The notes under the pieces: generated by a model | Database searches by the model: none | Told to the model about the DNA's origin: nothing | The model's input: the letters and a program-made list of their open reading frames with translations, nothing else | Position numbers and translations under genes: made by a program | Source: Escherichia phage vB_EcoM_G2494 | Direction: 5' to 3' (one strand) | DNA: 64,000 nucleotides | Sequence record: MK327935.1 | Shown here: positions 8,927-61,765 of the stretch, piece after piece | Numbering within the stretch: position 1 is the stretch's first letter | How the letters are laid out: each line of letters begins with the position of its first letter

Positions 8927-9858
8927 TGTTTGATTTAAATGACTTTAACGAACAAGCCGCTAACCTTGACTTTCAGCGATCTAACTTATTCAGCGTGGCA
9001 TTTGCCACCACTCCAAGTAATAAGACACAAGCGATCCTAGAAAGTATGGGTGGTGCGGTATATGATATTATACCAAATGCATTAAATGACTATTTCGGGA
9101 TTACTCGTGGTGATTATACTGACGCATTAACAAATCTTGCTGTACAGGGTGTTAGGCGTGCTGTTGATTCATCTGGTGTCAAAAAGTATCTTTTAGGTGC
9201 AATGTCATCCCGCGTAGTTCAATCTCTTCTGGGGCAATTTGATGTTGGTACGTATGCTCTTGACTGGTTCAATATGGCATATAAGACAAGCGGTCTTCTG
9301 GTGTATGCTGTTAAGGTTCCAGAAAACAGATTGAATTATGAAATGGACCGCAACCACAATGCGCCAAACATTCGAATTACCGGACGTGATTTTGATCCGC
9401 TTGTATTGAGCTTTAGAATGGACTCTAGCGCATCAAACTATAGAGCAATGCAGGATTGGGTTAACTCAGTAGAAGACCCCGTTACAGGGCTTCGTGCGCT
9501 TCCTGTTGACGTTGAAGCAGATATTCAGGTTAACTTACATAACCGAATGGGAGTTCCTCACACGATCATGATGTTTAATGGTTGTGTTCCTGTTGGTGTG
9601 AGTGCACCGGAATTAACCTATGAAAATAACAACGAAATTACAACATTCGATGTTACTTTCGCATATCGTTCTATGCAAACTGGTGCTGTAGGAGAGCAAG
9701 CCGCGCGAGAATGGATTGAGGATAAGGCAATAAACGCAATAACAAACACTTTCGGCAATAATTTACTTGATAGTGGGTTATCTGCTGCTGGTAATGCTTT
9801 ATCGCGTCTAAATGGCGTTGGTGGGCGTGTGGTGAATACTGTCACTAACTGGTTCTGA
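8926..9858 (+). CDS. 54: baseplate tail-tube initiator gp54
   Basis: 310 aa, synteny. Confidence 0.75.
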   Translation: MFDLNDFNEQAANLDFQRSNLFSVAFATTPSNKTQAILESMGGAVYDIIPNALNDYFGITRGDYTDALTNLAVQGVRRAVDSSGVKKYLLGAMSSRVVQSLLGQFDVGTYALDWFNMAYKTSGLLVYAVKVPENRLNYEMDRNHNAPNIRITGRDFDPLVLSFRMDSSASNYRAMQDWVNSVEDPVTGLRALPVDVEADIQVNLHNRMGVPHTIMMFNGCVPVGVSAPELTYENNNEITTFDVTFAYRSMQTGAVGEQAAREWIEDKAINAITNTFGNNLLDSGLSAAGNALSRLNGVGGRVVNTVTNWF

Positions 9859-9864
9859 TAAGCG

Positions 9865-9896
9865 AAAGGCGGGGATTATCCCCCGCCTTTTTATTT
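9865..9896. terminator. bidirectional rho-independent terminator
   Basis: stem GGCGGGG/CCCCGCC with loop ATTATC, T-run on plus and A-run upstream; lies between convergent genes 54 and 9891 lipoprotein. Confidence 0.65.
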
Positions 9897-10376
9897 TGCT
9901 AAATCATTGCAATATTTTAGTGCCTTAGTTTGAAATTCTGCGCTGTTAAGTTCTTCATAACGGTCATAATCACCGTTTAATGCTGCCTTTCTTGCTTCTT
10001 GCTCTATCTGCATGTCAGACATGATAATACAGCGATCCCGTGCTTTCATCTTCTCAAGTTGTATAGACTCTTCTTTCTGCTTGCGCAATTCTTCTTGACG
10101 CTTCTTTTCTTCTTGTGCTTTCTCTTCCCGCGCTTCTTTGATTGCATCCTTGAACATCTGCGTTTGTGGTGCTAAACCAACTTTAACGCGATCTACGTCT
10201 CGACGTTCCATTTTAGAAATAAAGCATGATTCGATCTTATCATCACTTGCATATGTTGCTTTACATTCACGAAGCAAGAAAACCGGATCTGATTTAGCAT
10301 TCATCATAGCTTCCATGTTAGCACAACCAGTAAGCATGAATACAGCCGCAAGACCAATTAGTTTAATCATTTTCAT
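9891..10376 (-). CDS. putative lipoprotein with K/E-rich coiled-coil segment
   Basis: signal peptide MKMIKLIGLAAVFMLTGC with lipobox LTGC; start overlaps upstream ART gene stop. Confidence 0.6.
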   Translation of the reverse strand: MKMIKLIGLAAVFMLTGCANMEAMMNAKSDPVFLLRECKATYASDDKIESCFISKMERRDVDRVKVGLAPQTQMFKDAIKEAREEKAQEEKKRQEELRKQKEESIQLEKMKARDRCIIMSDMQIEQEARKAALNGDYDRYEELNSAEFQTKALKYCNDLAK

Positions 10377-11197
10377 TTAGTCACCTCACCGAAAATTGTA
10401 AATTGTCTACGATTCTCATCGCCGAAAGATTCTACTACGTCGTTTACCTTGACGCAAGTCCCGCGCGGTAAAATTACTTCACATTCGCAAGGGTTCCATG
10501 CAATGGACCCAACAACAAAACCTTTATGATCTTTTACATCAATCACCCATGATACATTACAAGAATGTTGCATCTTTCCGGTCATTGATTCATATCGATT
10601 CTCACAATAAAGGCTAGTGCTGTTTGAAAGCCATCCTCCAAAGATGATCGGTGTCATGCTAGTAGATACAAAGTTTTTAAAGGTAAATTCCTTATCTTCA
10701 ATAATACGCTCTATTGTCTGAATGTCAAGATGTTGACCGCGATAAAGAGTACCGTTTAACTTTTCGGTTTTATCCATGACACAATCCATCAAATCAACAA
10801 TCTCTGATATCTCATCGGTCATGTCTTCTTCCCCTAAGAGAGCACCATTTACCCATTCGTATTGTTCAGACACATAATCACAGATTGCATTATATTCTGC
10901 TGGGGTTATGTTGTTATGTTTGTAATGTTTGAATACATTATCTCCAAAGTCTTCGGAGTGTACTTCATACATCACATTAATGATTTTCTTTACAAATCCA
11001 TAATCTTGTGTCTCGCGCTCAAGGAAGCGGATAACCTTCACATAATCATCAAAGTTAATCTGATCGCTGATCATTTCAGTGATCATGTAACCATTAATAC
11101 CATCAATGTCATATGTTTCGATGTAATTATCCATACGTTCCATCATTGATTCGCGTGATTCTTCCGAAAGACGAAAATCCTGTAATTTCTTGAACAT
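10373..11197 (-). CDS. Alt-like mono-ADP-ribosyltransferase paralog (R-S-ExE type)
   Basis: LYRGQ, FVSTSMTP, NPCECEVILPRG motifs parallel the Alt C-terminal catalytic domain. Confidence 0.7.
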   Translation of the reverse strand: MFKKLQDFRLSEESRESMMERMDNYIETYDIDGINGYMITEMISDQINFDDYVKVIRFLERETQDYGFVKKIINVMYEVHSEDFGDNVFKHYKHNNITPAEYNAICDYVSEQYEWVNGALLGEEDMTDEISEIVDLMDCVMDKTEKLNGTLYRGQHLDIQTIERIIEDKEFTFKNFVSTSMTPIIFGGWLSNSTSLYCENRYESMTGKMQHSCNVSWVIDVKDHKGFVVGSIAWNPCECEVILPRGTCVKVNDVVESFGDENRRQFTIFGEVTK

Positions 11198-53571: not shown

Positions 53572-54372
53572 ATGGCAGTAGTTGGTGTTCCTGGTTGGAT
53601 TGGAAGTTCAGCCGCAAATGAAACAGGACAACGATGGATGAGTCAAGCGGCTGGTCAATTAAGATTGGGTGTTCCTTGCTGGATGAGTCAATTTGCAGGT
53701 CGCTCGCGAGAAATTATTCATACTGTAGGAGCAAACCACAATTTTAATGGTCAGTGGTTCCGTGATAGATGCTTTGAAGCTGGCGGTGCACCTATTGTAT
53801 TCAATATTGTTGGTGATATCGTTTCTTATTCTAAAGATGTACCGCTTTTCTTTATGTATGGTGACACTCCTAACGAATACGTTGTCCTTAATATTCATGG
53901 TGGTGTCCATATGTGGGGTCGAGGTGGTAATGGTGGATACACTCACTCAGGTGGAGATGGTAACGGTACACAAGGCGGTCATGTTATTCAAAATGATATC
54001 GGTGGACGGCTTCGTATTTGGAACTACGGTGTTATAGCTGCTGGCGGTGGTGGCGGTGGTGGTATTGCATATCGTCCACACTCAGGGGCAAACTGGCAAG
54101 ATATCGGTGGCGGTGGCGGTCGACCTTTCGGTGGTGCTGGCGGTGGCGGTTATTCCGGTGGTGCTGCTTCTTATGAAGGTCCGGGTGGTGGTTACAACTA
54201 TGGTAACGCACACTCCGGCGCGGGTGGTAATGCTGGCGCTGCTGGTCAGAATGCATGGTCTGATGGCGGTAAAGTTCTTAAAGTTGGTGTTGGTGGTGCT
54301 TCTGGTCATGCCGTGTTTGGATCTTCTCCAACTTGGGGCGCTGTAGGGACAATTTATGGACCTTACATTTAA
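53572..54372 (+). CDS. 38: gp38 receptor-recognising adhesin (T2-type, glycine-rich motifs)
   Basis: N-terminus [45 protein letters not shown]; several GGGGGG motifs separating variable segments. Confidence 0.8.
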
Positions 54373-54704: not shown

Positions 54705-55361
54705 ATGCAAGTTTCTGAAAAAGGGAAAGACTTTGCTATCTCAAATGTCCTGCGCGCTATTTTCACAACTAAAAGCACGGAGTTGCTCGTACTTCGTGTT
54801 TTTGCTGCCGTCGTGTTGTCCATATTAGCATTTGTCGTTTATAGTAAAAACGAGTTATTTGCGCTTTATAAAGAGACTCGTTATGAGACTTATGCTCACA
54901 TTCTCCAGGTAGAGAAAGACCGCAATTTTGATAATGCAGCACAGGAGCAGTTACAGATAGTTCATGTGTCGGCTGATGCCGATTTTTCTGCTGTTTTTAG
55001 TTTTCGTCCGAAAAACCTAAACTATTTTGTTGATTTGGTGGCATATGAAGGAAAGCTACCTCACACAATCGATGAAAAAAATTTAGGCGGATTCCCTATC
55101 AATAAAACGAGTGAAGAATATCGTAGGCATCTTTTAGGTAAATCATATTTTACCGATAAAGATTTCCAGTATATTCCATCAAGAGAAAAGAAATTAGAGA
55201 ATATCGATATAGGGTTTATGTATTCTTGCCCTATATTCAATCTCGATAATGTCTATTCTGGTAGTATCGCCATTGCATGGAAGAATAAACCGGATATTGA
55301 CATTGAGAATTTAGATACTCTTTGCAATCAATCTGCCAGAATCCTCGGAAGGATTAGATAA
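54705..55361 (+). CDS. t: holin t
   Basis: 218 aa; LQIVHVSADADFSAVFSFRPKNLNYFVDLVAYEGKLP and YSCPIFNLDN match T4 holin. Confidence 0.9.
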   Translation: MQVSEKGKDFAISNVLRAIFTTKSTELLVLRVFAAVVLSILAFVVYSKNELFALYKETRYETYAHILQVEKDRNFDNAAQEQLQIVHVSADADFSAVFSFRPKNLNYFVDLVAYEGKLPHTIDEKNLGGFPINKTSEEYRRHLLGKSYFTDKDFQYIPSREKKLENIDIGFMYSCPIFNLDNVYSGSIAIAWKNKPDIDIENLDTLCNQSARILGRIR

Positions 55362-55365
55362 CTTA

Positions 55366-55399
55366 AAGGGGAAGCCTTTCGGCCTCCCCTTCTTTTTAT
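55366..55399. terminator. bidirectional rho-independent terminator
   Basis: long GC-rich stem AGGGGAAGCC/GGCCTCCCCT followed by CTTTTTATT; between convergent t and 55396 gene. Confidence 0.65.
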
Positions 55400-55644
55400 T
55401 GGCGCATAGAAGCCCCTGAATCACATTTTGACGCTGTATGATGAAAACAGGTAGCGTACCAGTCATCGGCTTGTTTGTCTTCGTCAGAAAACGCGTAATT
55501 GCGTTGTATGCCGTTTTCTACTTTGACCAGTGCAATAGCTGTTTCTGGAAGATCAATCAATCGGACAAAATCACCATCTTCCCACTCTACACGAGCAATA
55601 TCATAGCCCATCTCAAAGTATACAATCGCTTGTTCTAATTTCAT
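55396..55644 (-). CDS. hypothetical protein (82 aa)
   Basis: ORF. Confidence 0.5.
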   Translation of the reverse strand: MKLEQAIVYFEMGYDIARVEWEDGDFVRLIDLPETAIALVKVENGIQRNYAFSDEDKQADDWYATCFHHTASKCDSGASMRQ

Positions 55645-57143: not shown

Positions 57144-57335
57144 TCACTTATCGTTAAGAAGTTCTAAAACTTTCTGTCGTACTTTGTCAATATTAGTTGA
57201 TTCAAAAACTGTACGGTATCCCCAGCTTTGACCGTATGAGCGGTTGCAATCTCCATATCCCCATTGTTCAACCTGATAGTATTCAAGGAATGGATGCTGC
57301 CGAACTATGATACCATCGCGATTAAAAATTACCAT
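57144..57335 (-). CDS. hypothetical protein (63 aa)
   Basis: ORF. Confidence 0.45.
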   Translation of the reverse strand: MVIFNRDGIIVRQHPFLEYYQVEQWGYGDCNRSYGQSWGYRTVFESTNIDKVRQKVLELLNDK

Positions 57336-57358: not shown

Positions 57359-57646
57359 TTATTTTCGGTTGTGGTCACGATATGTTTTAAAATATCCCTT
57401 GTACCACGGTAAAACATCTGGATTTTTACCACTATACAGACCTTTAACCATCATGTCAATAAGACCGTCCGGTGTTTGATAATTACCAGCTTTTATAAGC
57501 TCTCTGATTAAAATTTCCCTGTATATGTCTTTCGGATCTTCGTAATCAACTTGTATCGTGGTTGTAGTCTCATTCAATTTGGTTTCTGGAGTATCTTGCA
57601 TCGCCTCCCACCAATCTTTTGTAATCTTCATGTTATTGAATTGCAT
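57359..57646 (-). CDS. hypothetical protein (95 aa)
   Basis: ORF. Confidence 0.5.
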   Translation of the reverse strand: MQFNNMKITKDWWEAMQDTPETKLNETTTTIQVDYEDPKDIYREILIRELIKAGNYQTPDGLIDMMVKGLYSGKNPDVLPWYKGYFKTYRDHNRK

Positions 57647-57657
57647 AATTTAACCTC

Positions 57658-58416
57658 TTACTTGCAAACGTATTGATCTACATCAATTGCGCCACCGAAT
57701 GTAGGATGACGTTTTTCAAATCGAATAGTTCCGTCGTTTGGTTCGAAAACGGAGTATTCATATAGATCTTTCTTGCCAACATTCTTATAAAACCCGCCTT
57801 TAGTCATAACGGTTTCTTGTACGTTTGCTTTGTGTACGTTGTATTCGTCAATGTATACAAAATCAACCATCTTCCCATTTTTAATGGTTACTTTAAGATC
57901 TCCTGGCTGGTTTCCATATTTGGCATACATTGGCGCTTCTTTAATTTTGGTAGAAATTCCATCTTTCATACTCCACTCATAACGAACGGTGCATTGATAG
58001 GTAAAAGTTTCGACCTTCGGTTCTTCTACCACTTTTTCTTCCTGTTTCGGTTGTTCTTCTTCAACCTTCACAGAAGTCTCTGAATCGCTTTCTGACGCGG
58101 TTTCTTCTTTAGGTAATACATTCATCAAGTTTTGGATTTGAGCGTTATATACAGCCTCCAGTGGCTGAATCTGCCCGATATTGATCATAGTATCACGAAC
58201 AGTTTTATTCCAGTTGCGTTGCTCTTGTTTAAGCGACGGGTCAATCTTAACAGCCTTAACATATACTTCATGAAGTTTAGAATCAAGTGTGGAGATTGAC
58301 TCATTAGCACAAATAAACTTCTCTGATTTGGTAGTAGCTTTAGCGCAATCAAAGGACGCAGCGTTAGCACCGAAAGCAGTAGCAGAAAGAACGATAGCAG
58401 CGATAATGTTTTTCAT
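57658..58416 (-). CDS. periplasmic protein with LprI/DUF1311-like N-terminal domain
   Basis: signal peptide MKNIIAAIVLSATAFGANA; DCAKATT..E.FIC....LD..L...Y......QRNW pattern; own promoter cassette. Confidence 0.55.
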   Translation of the reverse strand: MKNIIAAIVLSATAFGANAASFDCAKATTKSEKFICANESISTLDSKLHEVYVKAVKIDPSLKQEQRNWNKTVRDTMINIGQIQPLEAVYNAQIQNLMNVLPKEETASESDSETSVKVEEEQPKQEEKVVEEPKVETFTYQCTVRYEWSMKDGISTKIKEAPMYAKYGNQPGDLKVTIKNGKMVDFVYIDEYNVHKANVQETVMTKGGFYKNVGKKDLYEYSVFEPNDGTIRFEKRHPTFGGAIDVDQYVCK

Positions 58417-58487
58417 AATATATTCCTCAATGTTTTGTCTTGATGGGAGTATCTTACTACTCCCTTAATCCAGTGTCAACTACTTTT

Positions 58488-58643
58488 TTAAATTTCTTCT
58501 ACAGTAAAGTCTTCAATGTTGTTGTGCTCGGCGAACGTTGCCAGACCAGCATTCCATGCATCATCCTCAGAGAAGAATACACCGTAACGTTCATATCCTT
58601 TAGCGCCTTCAAATTTAACCATTAATTTGTGAGTATGTTTCAT
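58488..58643 (-). CDS. small early protein (51 aa)
   Basis: ATG at 58643 behind cassette RBS; ORF track call over-extends through promoter. Confidence 0.5.
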   Translation of the reverse strand: MKHTHKLMVKFEGAKGYERYGVFFSEDDAWNAGLATFAEHNNIEDFTVEEI

Positions 58644-58674
58644 TTTGATTCTCCTTCGTTGTCTTGATGAGTTT

Positions 58675-58703
58675 AGTATAGGGGATCGCCGATCCCCTGT
58701 CAA
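58675..58703 (-). promoter_or_regulatory. sigma70-like early promoter
   Basis: TTGACA, spacer GGGGATCGGCGATCCCC, TATACT. Confidence 0.55.
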
Positions 58704-58713
58704 CAACTATTTT

Positions 58714-58926
58714 TTATTTTTTACCCGCTCGTGCATTAATACGCATTTTCTGCATAGCCATGATCTGGCTTACTGCTTCTTCTTTACGTTCTTGCGTGAT
58801 AACGTGACCAGATTCCGCAAACTCTCCAGCAACTTCTTCTACGATCTCGCGAACTTGAGAACGTCCAAAGATGCGGTTTCCTTCGTAGCTCATAAATTCA
58901 GTCACTACTTGCTCAATAGATTTCAT
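58714..58926 (-). CDS. small early protein (70 aa)
   Basis: ATG at 58926 with GGAGAATCAC RBS. Confidence 0.5.
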   Translation of the reverse strand: MKSIEQVVTEFMSYEGNRIFGRSQVREIVEEVAGEFAESGHVITQERKEEAVSQIMAMQKMRINARAGKK

Positions 58927-59426: not shown

Positions 59427-59492
59427 CTTTGATTCTCCTTTTGTTTGGAATGGGAGTATATTACTACTCCCATTATTCAGTGTCAATAGATT

Positions 59493-59699
59493 TTATTCGA
59501 TTATTTCAAATTTTGCTACCGGATCACCGTTTCGTTTGGTTGCAGTAAGTTGTTGTTTGTCAAAGTAAAACCAAATATAGTCACCATGAACTACATCAAA
59601 TGTGTTTCCGCTATTGTCCGTGGATACATCAACATCATAATCACAACCGACACTAAAGCTATAATTGATGTGATCGGTTTCAATGCAACGTACTTTCAT
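59493..59699 (-). CDS. small early protein (68 aa), VAKFE-family
   Basis: ATG at 59699 behind cassette; C-terminus VAKFEIIE. Confidence 0.5.
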   Translation of the reverse strand: MKVRCIETDHINYSFSVGCDYDVDVSTDNSGNTFDVVHGDYIWFYFDKQQLTATKRNGDPVAKFEIIE

Positions 59700-59730
59700 T
59701 TTTGAATCTCCTTTTTGTTTCACTGTGTGT

Positions 59731-60205: not shown

Positions 60206-60407
60206 ACTTTCCCTCCAAAAATTCTTTCATCAAATAGTCTATCGTTGCTCTGTGTTCTGGTGTGTTTGTTATCTCTGCTAACTTATTCAGAGATTCAATA
60301 GTGATCCGGTTGGCTTCTTCCATAGTCTCAACGACCATTGGCACAATCTTTTTATTGTTGTACACGAAAGCCACATAACCGCCTTCTGGATATTCTTTCA
60401 TAATCAA
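60198..60407 (-). CDS. hypothetical protein (69 aa)
   Basis: ORF overlapping neighbours. Confidence 0.45.
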   Translation of the reverse strand: MIMKEYPEGGYVAFVYNNKKIVPMVVETMEEANRITIESLNKLAEITNTPEHRATIDYLMKEFLEGKYD

Positions 60408-61765
60408 CCCTTCTTAAGTTCTTTAAGATCTTTCTTATATTCCTTCATTGCGGTCGTCTTTGTCCAATACTCATATTCACTATGATGTTTATCGGCATCT
60501 TTGACCAGTCGATCATATTCTTCTTGGGTAACGCTGTACAATGGCATAGAAACGAGCTTATCGGCGTATGGACGCAGTTTTTCATGTCCATTGATGGATT
60601 GCATTACCTCGGCCTTTTTCTTGCCCTGTAGCTCGATTTCGCCCTTAATTACGCGATCGATAAATTCGGCTTTAGCCATTGCATAATTGTATGCTTCCAG
60701 CGTTTCCGCTTGCATCAATTCAATGCGTTTATCGACATACCCTAATCGGATTTCGACGAATCGACGGATCAGATCGCTCGCTTTCTCGAATACTTCTACT
60801 AAACCACGTTCGTTAACTACTACGATATTCTGGGCTACTAACTGCGTTAGTTTAAAATCCTTCATGATTTGCTCATGTCGAGCGGATTCATCTTCGCTTT
60901 TGAAATAATCGCGTTTCAGTGTTACTTCAAATCTGAATCCGTCCTTAGAGCAACGGTCATTATATGATACAATCAGATCTTTTTCTTCCAGTGCATCCAG
61001 TACCGCTACATATTCTTCACGGTCGAACTTATAAGGAACTTCTGATATTGTCAGTTTAGTCTTGCCGTTTAGTTCATATGTACCCTCAAGAATCACACCA
61101 TCGCGATCATCTCGCGGGATAACTTTACCCGTGAATTTCGGGAATTGAACACTAGGTTCTTTATCCAGTTTTCCGGCAAGTGCTAGCTCTGTGCATTCAA
61201 TAAGGCTTTCCAGTGAATGCGGTAAAATGTCAGTTTTATACCCTGTAGCAATACCACTAATACCATTAGCCAATACCATTGGCACAACTGGCAAGTAGAA
61301 CGCTGGCGGGATGTGTTCCATATCTTCGTGCTTAGGTGCGCAATTCATATCTTTATAGATTTTAAAGAAGTTTTCATGCACACGAGCAAAGATATAACGT
61401 GCTGCACCTGCTTTCTGGACTAAACGAGATCCGAAGTTACCTTGACCGTCAAGCAGTGGAGTATTATTGCTCCATGTATTCGCCATGAGTGATCCGGCTT
61501 CTACGGCATTAGTTTCGCCGTGGTGATACCCCAATTCAGCAACACCAGATCCAATATCTGCCATCTTACGGAATTTCTTACGGTCGCCTTTACTCTTTTG
61601 AAGTGCGCACTCCATAACAAAGCGTTGCACTGGTTTAAGCCCATCCACTAATTGAGGAATCCCGCGTTCCTCGGCAGAATAGATCGCATATTCCTTAGCT
61701 TCATTATGTACAATGCTTTCAAGGCTGCGGTAAGTAACTGATTTATTCATCTTCACCTCATACAC
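60404..61765 (-). CDS. 52: DNA topoisomerase II medium subunit gp52
   Basis: 453 aa; DGLKPVQRF and active-site Tyr region AGAARYIFAR (GyrA-like). Confidence 0.85.
   Translation of the reverse strand: MYEVKMNKSVTYRSLESIVHNEAKEYAIYSAEERGIPQLVDGLKPVQRFVMECALQKSKGDRKKFRKMADIGSGVAELGYHHGETNAVEAGSLMANTWSNNTPLLDGQGNFGSRLVQKAGAARYIFARVHENFFKIYKDMNCAPKHEDMEHIPPAFYLPVVPMVLANGISGIATGYKTDILPHSLESLIECTELALAGKLDKEPSVQFPKFTGKVIPRDDRDGVILEGTYELNGKTKLTISEVPYKFDREEYVAVLDALEEKDLIVSYNDRCSKDGFRFEVTLKRDYFKSEDESARHEQIMKDFKLTQLVAQNIVVVNERGLVEVFEKASDLIRRFVEIRLGYVDKRIELMQAETLEAYNYAMAKAEFIDRVIKGEIELQGKKKAEVMQSINGHEKLRPYADKLVSMPLYSVTQEEYDRLVKDADKHHSEYEYWTKTTAMKEYKKDLKELKKG

Follow-up and report, generated by a model that had tools for sequence, protein, structure and literature searches.

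What does a T4-type phage do with an exported protein whose head resembles part of a lysozyme inhibitor? The question is raised by a 252-residue open reading frame (ORF) of Escherichia phage vB_EcoM_G2494 (sequence record MK327935.1), within a stretch of 64,000 nucleotides referred to here as the window. A preliminary description of this DNA proposed a periplasmic protein with an LprI/DUF1311-like domain, and suggested that it could be an unrelated functional analogue of T4 Spackle, the periplasmic inhibitor of the gp5 tail lysozyme.

The likeness to LprI/DUF1311 is not new. The RB49 counterpart, RB49ORF260c, was already listed with a weak DUF1311 hit by Nolan et al. 2006 (PMC1524935). UniProt names the RB49 protein 'Lysozyme inhibitor LprI-like N-terminal domain-containing protein', and NCBI names the prophage homologues 'lysozyme inhibitor LprI family protein'; public annotation thus already reflects the structural observation. 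The present analysis adds a description of how the protein is built: an exported head that stays constant; an acidic linker prone to recombination; discrete C-terminal alleles; and sharing of the head with prophages. New are the findings that unrelated C-terminal alleles occur in phage genomes otherwise 95–100% identical, that the choice of allele is unrelated to the gp5 lysozyme domain and to the type of adhesin, and that the head has recently been shared with Escherichia coli prophages. As the best explanation we propose, tentatively and with a probability of about 0.35, that the protein neutralises an invading peptidoglycan hydrolase in the periplasm.

A conserved gene for an exported, modular protein

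The source is a Krischvirus (an RB49-like, T4-like coliphage): the 2 kb around the gene are 96–98% identical to Krischvirus genomes (RB49, G2248, JEP8, and others). The ORF is a real, conserved gene, found in all 56+ sequenced Krischvirus genomes. Its ATG start is preceded at 10 nucleotides by a GAGG ribosome-binding site, and its product matches PHROG 14799 (E 2.9e-155). No paralogue was found within the window, and NCBIfam and PADLOC searches returned nothing significant. The gene and the parts of its product lie on the minus strand, which the preliminary description had left unstated:

57658..58416, minus strand: coding sequence, 252 residues plus stop; orthologue of RB49p262 (alias RB49ORF260c), identical to QBO63229.1
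58360..58416, minus strand: Sec signal peptide, residues 1–19, read from sequence and hydropathy; predicted local distance difference test (pLDDT) below 50
58117..58359, minus strand: constant N-terminal helical domain of LprI/DUF1311 type, residues 20–100, with Cys24 and Cys36
58015..58116, minus strand: acidic low-complexity linker and allele junction, residues 101–134, from pLDDT below 50, composition, alignments, and identity profile
57661..58014, minus strand: exchangeable C-terminal domain, residues 135–252, an eight-stranded β-barrel (predicted) with Cys142 and Cys251; allele A1

The signal peptide that had been claimed is present. Residues 1–19 read MKNIIAAIVLSATAFGANA, followed by AS, and give an A-x-A site of signal peptidase I type with a predicted cut at ANA|AS; the mean Kyte-Doolittle hydropathy of residues 3–16 is 1.86. 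The protein does not appear to be a lipoprotein: S-F-D-C around Cys24 is no lipobox, and the A-N-A|A site precedes it.

The remaining architecture likewise agrees with the preliminary description, which had read a Cys-bracketed helical domain, a linker, and a β-rich C-terminal domain. The Pfam LprI family (PF07007) matches residues 24–76 at 24.8 bits (E 3.1e-5), above the curated gathering cut-off of 22, so that the profile check bears out the likeness to LprI; phage homologues of the head score 22–30 bits. The quoted motifs DCAKATT (residues 23–29), FIC (34–36), and QRNW (66–69) are all there. AlphaFold2, run with a 13-sequence alignment, predicts four helices (residues 30–98), disorder (residues 104–132, pLDDT <50), and eight strands (residues 135–251). 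The helices form a bundle like that of the solved DUF1311 structure 3gi7. The linker holds 12 D/E and 5 K/R and varies in length among homologues.

Cys24 and Cys36 are the sole cysteines of the N-terminal domain, and these two, along with Cys142 and Cys251, are invariant in 21 of 21 homologues. Four invariant cysteines fit folding in an oxidising compartment, and the protein is probably periplasmic. The evidence therefore supports, at the level of sequence and model, a protein composed of a signal peptide, an LprI/DUF1311-type helical head, an acidic linker, and a disulfide-bracketed β-barrel.

Discrete C-terminal alleles

Homologues, when aligned, hardly vary over their first ~130 residues, whereas their C-terminal domains are radically different. 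Compared with phi1 and GEC-3S, the flanking DNA is 95–100% identical; identity falls abruptly to 40–64% from ~58020, at the linker end, and recovers around 57330. This divergence island, ~58020 to ~57330, comprises the C-terminal domain together with the next ORF:

57359..57646, minus strand: downstream 95-residue ORF (RB49p261, PHROG 15915, no Pfam hit), without signal peptide, beginning 11 nucleotides after the stop codon and lying in the same divergence island

Among 56 sequenced Krischviruses, 44 carry the allele of the window (95–99% identical) and 12 an allele that is 35–36% identical to it. Phage JSE represents a third class, with a protein of 272 residues that is 97% identical to P0017. 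Metagenomic contigs add further alleles at the syntenic position, one of them helical. In all there are at least three allele classes in sequenced Krischviruses, and seven or more when metagenomic and prophage copies are included; each allele is well conserved internally. Homology between allele class A and class B (that of JSE) was considered and rejected: hhalign gave a probability of 3%, and the opening strand alone was aligned.

Judged from these alignments, the pattern is one of cassette replacement at the linker, not of continuous hypermutation. Discrete, very divergent alleles in near-identical genomes are, as a sequence pattern, typical of specificity determinants in conflict systems.

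Because the island spans exactly the C-terminal domain plus the next ORF, the locus could also be read as a cassette like those of polymorphic toxins and their immunity proteins, with a conserved N-terminus, a variable C-terminal effector, and the ORF at 57359..57646 as co-varying partner. Indeed, the small ORF begins 0–11 nucleotides after the stop codon, and is 32–52% identical between allele classes, with a conserved core LIKELIRAGNYQTPEGLIDMMV. However, prophage copies either lack it or keep only a ~25-codon remnant, and the distant phage locus L017 lacks it as well. The C-terminal domain is exported (predicted), whereas the small ORF has no signal peptide; and no match to a toxin family was obtained. 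Moreover, the climb in identity along the ORF is gradual, which is what the margin of a recombination tract would give. We consider this reading very improbable.

Two further islands of replacement or insertion/deletion (0–30% identity) interrupt the otherwise 95–100% identical DNA nearby: 59430..59720, seen against both phi1 and GEC-3S, and 58520..58720, seen against GEC-3S only. Both are consistent with shuffling of small early ORFs mediated by the 'promoter-early stem-loop' (PeSL) elements (PMC2839356) that are discussed below.

A head shared with prophages

The first 371–408 nucleotides of the gene have a 94–97% identical counterpart in 26 of 5426 complete E. coli genomes. These copies are intact and lie where a lambdoid prophage remnant (terminase, portal, Rha) ends, adjoining hicAB and yncJ. 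Identity begins at the ATG and stops in the linker. One prophage version (locus L004) is followed by a truncated remnant, ~25 codons long, of the downstream 95-residue ORF; other prophage copies have no downstream ORF. The limits of identity, together with the remnant, indicate that the gene moved from a Krischvirus-like phage into the prophage. The near-identical N-terminal half thus documents recent gene flow from virulent to temperate phages.

Loci L002 (CP035865.1) and L004 (DBGEXQ010000006.1) illustrate the setting. At ~9088..10800 the copies lie on the border of a degraded lambdoid prophage, next to hicAB, yncJ, and rlhA, and divergent from an unannotated gene of 183–184 residues; an insertion sequence (DDE_Tnp_1) is nearby in one strain.

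More distant two-domain relatives combine the same signal peptide and AASFDCxKA head with another tail. PHROG 4675, which matches the N-terminal half of the window protein only, includes ev099 gp35 (lambdoid phage), SSU5_101 (phage-plasmid), PWKp16_00286 (Klebsiella Marfavirus), and AS-sw gp009 (Aeromonas T4-like phage). Like the window protein, these have a signal peptide, the AASFDCxKA...LprI head (Pfam 22–30 bits), a linker, and a C-terminal domain of ~120 residues; unlike it, their C-terminal domains are helical or mixed and unrelated to the barrel. The same head occurs in 59 IMG/VR loci with helical, oligonucleotide-binding-fold (tRNA_anti-like), DUF4431, or multi-transmembrane C-termini. 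No recognisable inhibitor domain was found among the C-termini in these loci, where the only named families are DUF4431 and tRNA_anti-like.

The barrel and the MliC question

Modelled alone with AlphaFold2, the C-terminal domain reaches a pLDDT of 90.6 and a predicted template-modelling score of 0.83. The prediction is a small eight-stranded up-and-down barrel, bracketed by a disulfide between Cys142 and Cys251 that would join the first and last strands. An outer-membrane barrel was rejected: six of the eight strands are short, at 6–8 residues, the first strand is tied to the last by a disulfide, and the C-terminus lacks an aromatic signal.

An MliC/PliC identity was checked because it would reproduce the architecture of Mycobacterium tuberculosis LprI. 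In that case the protein would be a true LprI-type inhibitor: a DUF1311 head plus a very divergent MliC/PliC-like barrel, directed against c-type (animal) or other lysozymes and serving as a fitness gene for the host or lysogen. The order of domains is the same, and the barrel has eight strands with Cys in the first and last, as in MliC. Moreover, PliC/PhiA/ACP structures superpose on the barrel with the lowest root-mean-square deviation (2.6–2.8 Å over 75–83 residues), and hhalign aligns segment LKVTIKNGKMVDFVYIDEYNVHK with MliC LTVKLNNPRQEVSFVYDNQLLHLK.

The searches do not support this identity. Pfam MliC (PF09864) matched none of 14 alleles even at E ≤ 10; a profile of the alleles run against Protein Data Bank sequences did not retrieve MliC/PliC; and Foldseek with the C-terminal domain returned nothing at E ≤ 1e-3. 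A comparison of the alleles with 21 enterobacterial MliC sequences by hhalign gave a probability of 3.5%, although both alignments are shallow and the test has low power. The MliC alignment shows the loop motifs SxSGAxY and YxxxTKG, which the alignment of C-terminal domains lacks; TKGG occurs in allele A1 and is not kept in other alleles. Finally, an exhaustive phmmer search of 1.84 billion representative proteins recovered only the gene's own family plus three spurious repeat proteins, and a profile word search for distant relatives of the domain found fragments only. By these sequence comparisons the barrel is a lineage-restricted orphan, and we regard a true LprI-type inhibitor as improbable.

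What the protein may neutralise

All functional links found for DUF1311/LprI proteins in the literature searched concern peptidoglycan glycosidases. Immunity to cell-wall-degrading effectors of type VI secretion systems (T6SS) is a role shown or predicted for stand-alone DUF1311 proteins (PMC12981562, PMC9796082, PMC8867033). For example, Etsi4 protects cells against the LysM-type effector Etse4, which targets the cell wall and is toxic in the periplasm (PMC12981562), and in Pantoea and Salmonella LprI-domain genes adjoin those for lysozyme-like or transglycosylase effectors (PMC9796082, PMC8867033). It is because of this family association, not of data on the window protein, that a role in neutralising a peptidoglycan hydrolase is preferred. 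Further support comes from an early-type promoter of the gene's own and from the presence of a Tad2-like anti-defence gene in the same block.

The proposed mechanism is as follows. The protein would be expressed early, exported by the Sec pathway, and soluble in the periplasm, where two independent modules would be held on a flexible acidic tether: the constant LprI/DUF1311-type helical domain and the exchangeable disulfide-stapled β-barrel. It would bind and neutralise its target stoichiometrically, in an 'immunity-like' manner, in the infected cell and in lysogens that carry the prophage copy. The target would be something that acts in the periplasm from outside. Most plausible is an enzyme that cleaves peptidoglycan, for instance the lysozyme on the tail of a superinfecting phage; the cell might then exclude that phage as with Spackle, or resist lysis from without. 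Muramidases delivered by a T6SS or as bacteriocins are alternative targets. The allelic C-terminal domain would set or broaden specificity. Intact prophage copies argue for an autonomous, host-protective periplasmic function outside T4-type infection.

DUF1311 immunity proteins share the signal peptide and PF07007 domain with the window protein, and theirs is a periplasmic neutralising role against cell-wall-degrading effectors. They have, however, one domain (~146 residues, a size given for SED_RS06230 only), and their genes stand beside the effector gene. The window gene has an added allelic domain and no adjoining hydrolase gene, and its prophage copies adjoin hicAB and phage genes. M. tuberculosis LprI (Rv1541c) is similar in layout: both proteins are exported and carry an N-terminal PF07007 domain followed by a small eight-stranded disulfide β-barrel. 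LprI is a lipoprotein, whereas the window protein has a signal peptidase I site, a 30-residue acidic linker, and an allelic, exchangeable barrel without detectable relation to MliC.

A third comparison introduces a different function. Salmonella ScwA (SL1344_0490) is, as predicted for the window protein, a soluble periplasmic LprI-domain protein. It controls the lytic transglycosylase MltD, raising MltD levels; it lyses cells when overproduced; and its disulfides are essential (PMC7933661). The window protein might similarly act on an autolysin of the host, such as a lytic transglycosylase, by binding or stabilising it, and so condition the sacculus during infection, for instance to prevent premature lysis or to assist lysis by a peptidase-type endolysin. 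The Krischvirus endolysin is indeed no glycosidase, and a Pseudomonas DUF1311 mutant is more sensitive to cefepime. Yet host peptidoglycan enzymes are conserved, which leaves discrete, hyper-divergent alleles unexplained, and the gene is of early type, not late. The architecture of ScwA also differs: its LprI domain is C-terminal, the remainder is helical, and the gene is chromosomal rather than phage-borne. Manipulation of host cell-wall enzymes is therefore an unlikely function.

Several points weigh against the neutralisation of a peptidoglycan hydrolase. The weak link is that LprI owes the name 'lysozyme inhibitor' to its MliC partner. In M. tuberculosis LprI, lysozyme inhibition is attributed to the MliC domain, and ScwA gives no lysozyme protection (PMC7933661); inhibition by an LprI domain alone was not found in the literature searched, nor was experimental work on the 252-residue protein or any phage homologue. 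The barrel, in turn, is not detectably MliC, and none of the other C-termini that the head bears in phages is a known lysozyme inhibitor. The N-terminal domain may be a generic periplasmic module. Its PF07007 match is partial, covering only profile positions 1–71 of 106, about two thirds of the model; the distal W..R..C....C segment is not matched, and the distal Cys pair of canonical members (for example IMG/VR loci L025, L057, and L062) is absent here. The C-terminal alleles do not co-vary with the lysozyme domain of gp5, which is 99–100% identical in all Krischviruses; if gp5 is the target, therefore, only the constant head could bind it. Finally, the Klebsiella T4-like phage PWKp16 (Marfavirus) encodes both Spackle and a 250-residue LprI protein, and the LprI protein is therefore no simple replacement for Spackle.

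The closest rival keeps exclusion or defence as the outcome and dispenses with the lysozyme. The DUF1311 head would be a generic periplasmic scaffold or anchor, and the partner of the allelic barrel would be variable and not an enzyme; it might belong to the tail tip or DNA-injection apparatus of competing phages, or be a protein of the envelope on which these depend. The facts that one N-terminal module bears many unrelated C-terminal domains in phages and prophages, that the alleles are 36% or less identical or unrelated, that the C-terminal domain is an orphan fold family, and that prophages carry the gene are all in its favour. On the other side, nothing in the literature searched ties DUF1311 to such a role; and the alleles do not follow adhesin type, with A1 occurring both with the Ox2-type gp38 of the window and with the gp38-less fibre module of RB49. 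This rival is possible, if rather doubtful.

Spackle and the tail lysozyme

For the hydrolase-neutralising reading, Krischvirus genomes offer a fitting background. A tblastn search with T4 Spackle (the query is 100% identical to T4 orf 61.3) against RB49 1–100,000, RB49 153,267–163,269, and the window found no homologue; the best match, inside gene 41, had an E value of 0.072. Among 927 Spackle-positive phage records, the breakdown by taxon and identity leaves no room for the ~58 Krischviruses. In the syntenic 61–41 interval of RB49, where an analogue of Spackle or Imm was sought, none with a signal peptide was found. This interval, in which T4 has sp and neighbouring small genes, does contain RB49p018 (L006 11261..11404), a two-helix membrane peptide of 47 residues.

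RB49 gp5 retains its Phage_lysozyme domain. The endolysin, however, is not a T4 e-type lysozyme: it is a Peptidase_M15_4 protein of 129 residues (E 4.4e-12; RB49 55,108..54,719; L007 4719..5108). With a peptidase-type endolysin, the phage could still lyse its host in the presence of a periplasmic muramidase inhibitor.

The window protein (by prediction) and T4 Spackle (gp61.3) are both encoded by early genes of T4-type phages, and both are small, Sec-exported periplasmic proteins with disulfides. They differ in that Spackle is an all-helical single domain of 97 residues, with no relation to the window protein in sequence or fold, and in that Spackle is conserved whereas the C-terminal domain of the window protein is polymorphic. 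Spackle-like inhibition of the gp5 tail lysozyme for superinfection exclusion is a plausible but conjectural function.

If the protein does neutralise tail lysozymes, or other invader components in transit through the periplasm, it would constitute a second, unrelated Spackle-type superinfection exclusion in T4-like phages. It would also give a first functional handle on a widespread family built from a signal peptide, an LprI head, and a variable tail (PHROGs 14799 and 4675), and would help clarify the role of the DUF1311 domain itself. The discrete alleles of RB49, phi1, and JSE, in near-identical genomes, amount to a natural swap experiment. Should the protein prove inert in assays, it would be one more hypothetical gene of a hyperplastic region.

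A broader and more speculative idea, which we hold to be doubtful, is that of a modular periplasmic 'exclusion cassette' common to virulent T4-type phages and temperate lambdoid prophages. Here the constant DUF1311 handle would carry interchangeable specificity domains, each neutralising a different invader component, so that the allele held would decide which competing phages, T6SS, or bacteriocin attacks are resisted.

A probable early promoter and stem-loop

The gene is preceded by one further element:

58445..58479, minus strand: PeSL-like early promoter plus stem-loop, from promoter scan, fold z-score, GEC-3S annotation, and PMC2839356

A σ70-like sequence, TTGACA-17-TAAGAT, lies at 58479..58451, ~35 nucleotides 5' of the ATG, and scores 10 of 12 matches in the promoter scan (−35, 58479..58474; −10, 58456..58451). 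Overlapping it at 58464..58445 is a hairpin, GGGAGUA-GUAAGA-UACUCCC, with a perfect 7-bp stem (z = −2.5 against shuffled sequences). GEC-3S carries a promoter annotation at the equivalent position, and the PeSL arrangement has been described for the hyperplastic regions of RB49 and phi1 (PMC2839356). Promoter-like sites in the region are no more numerous than in shuffled sequences, so the assignment rests on position and literature. On that basis (PMC2839356) the 252-residue gene is probably expressed early.

Two strong σ70-like sites (11 of 12 matches), TTGACA-17-TATACT and TTGACA-17-TATAGT, lie on the minus strand at 58675..58703 and 57431..57459, respectively. One is 5' of the preceding small ORF; the other is inside the downstream 95-residue ORF, ahead of ORF 57144..57335.

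Genomic setting

The gene sits in a leftward early block, flanked by holin gene t (54705..55361, plus strand) and by topoisomerase gene 52 (60404..61765). This block is a hyperplastic region of small ORFs, and the neighbours of the gene are small early ORFs without a hydrolase domain. Beside the holin gene, at 55396..55644 on the minus strand, an 82-residue early ORF matches Pfam Tad2-like (Thoeris anti-defence 2, PF11195) with 27.9 bits (cut-off 25; E 3.4e-6); the same match is present in the annotation of related contigs. This ORF suggests that the early block is an anti-defence and accessory island.

On the other side of the holin gene, at 53572..54372 on the plus strand, lies a gp38 adhesin gene whose product is 95–98.5% identical to Ox2-type Tequatrovirus gp38. 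In RB49 no gp38 separates gp37 from the holin gene. This Krischvirus therefore seems to have taken over its receptor-binding module from another genus.
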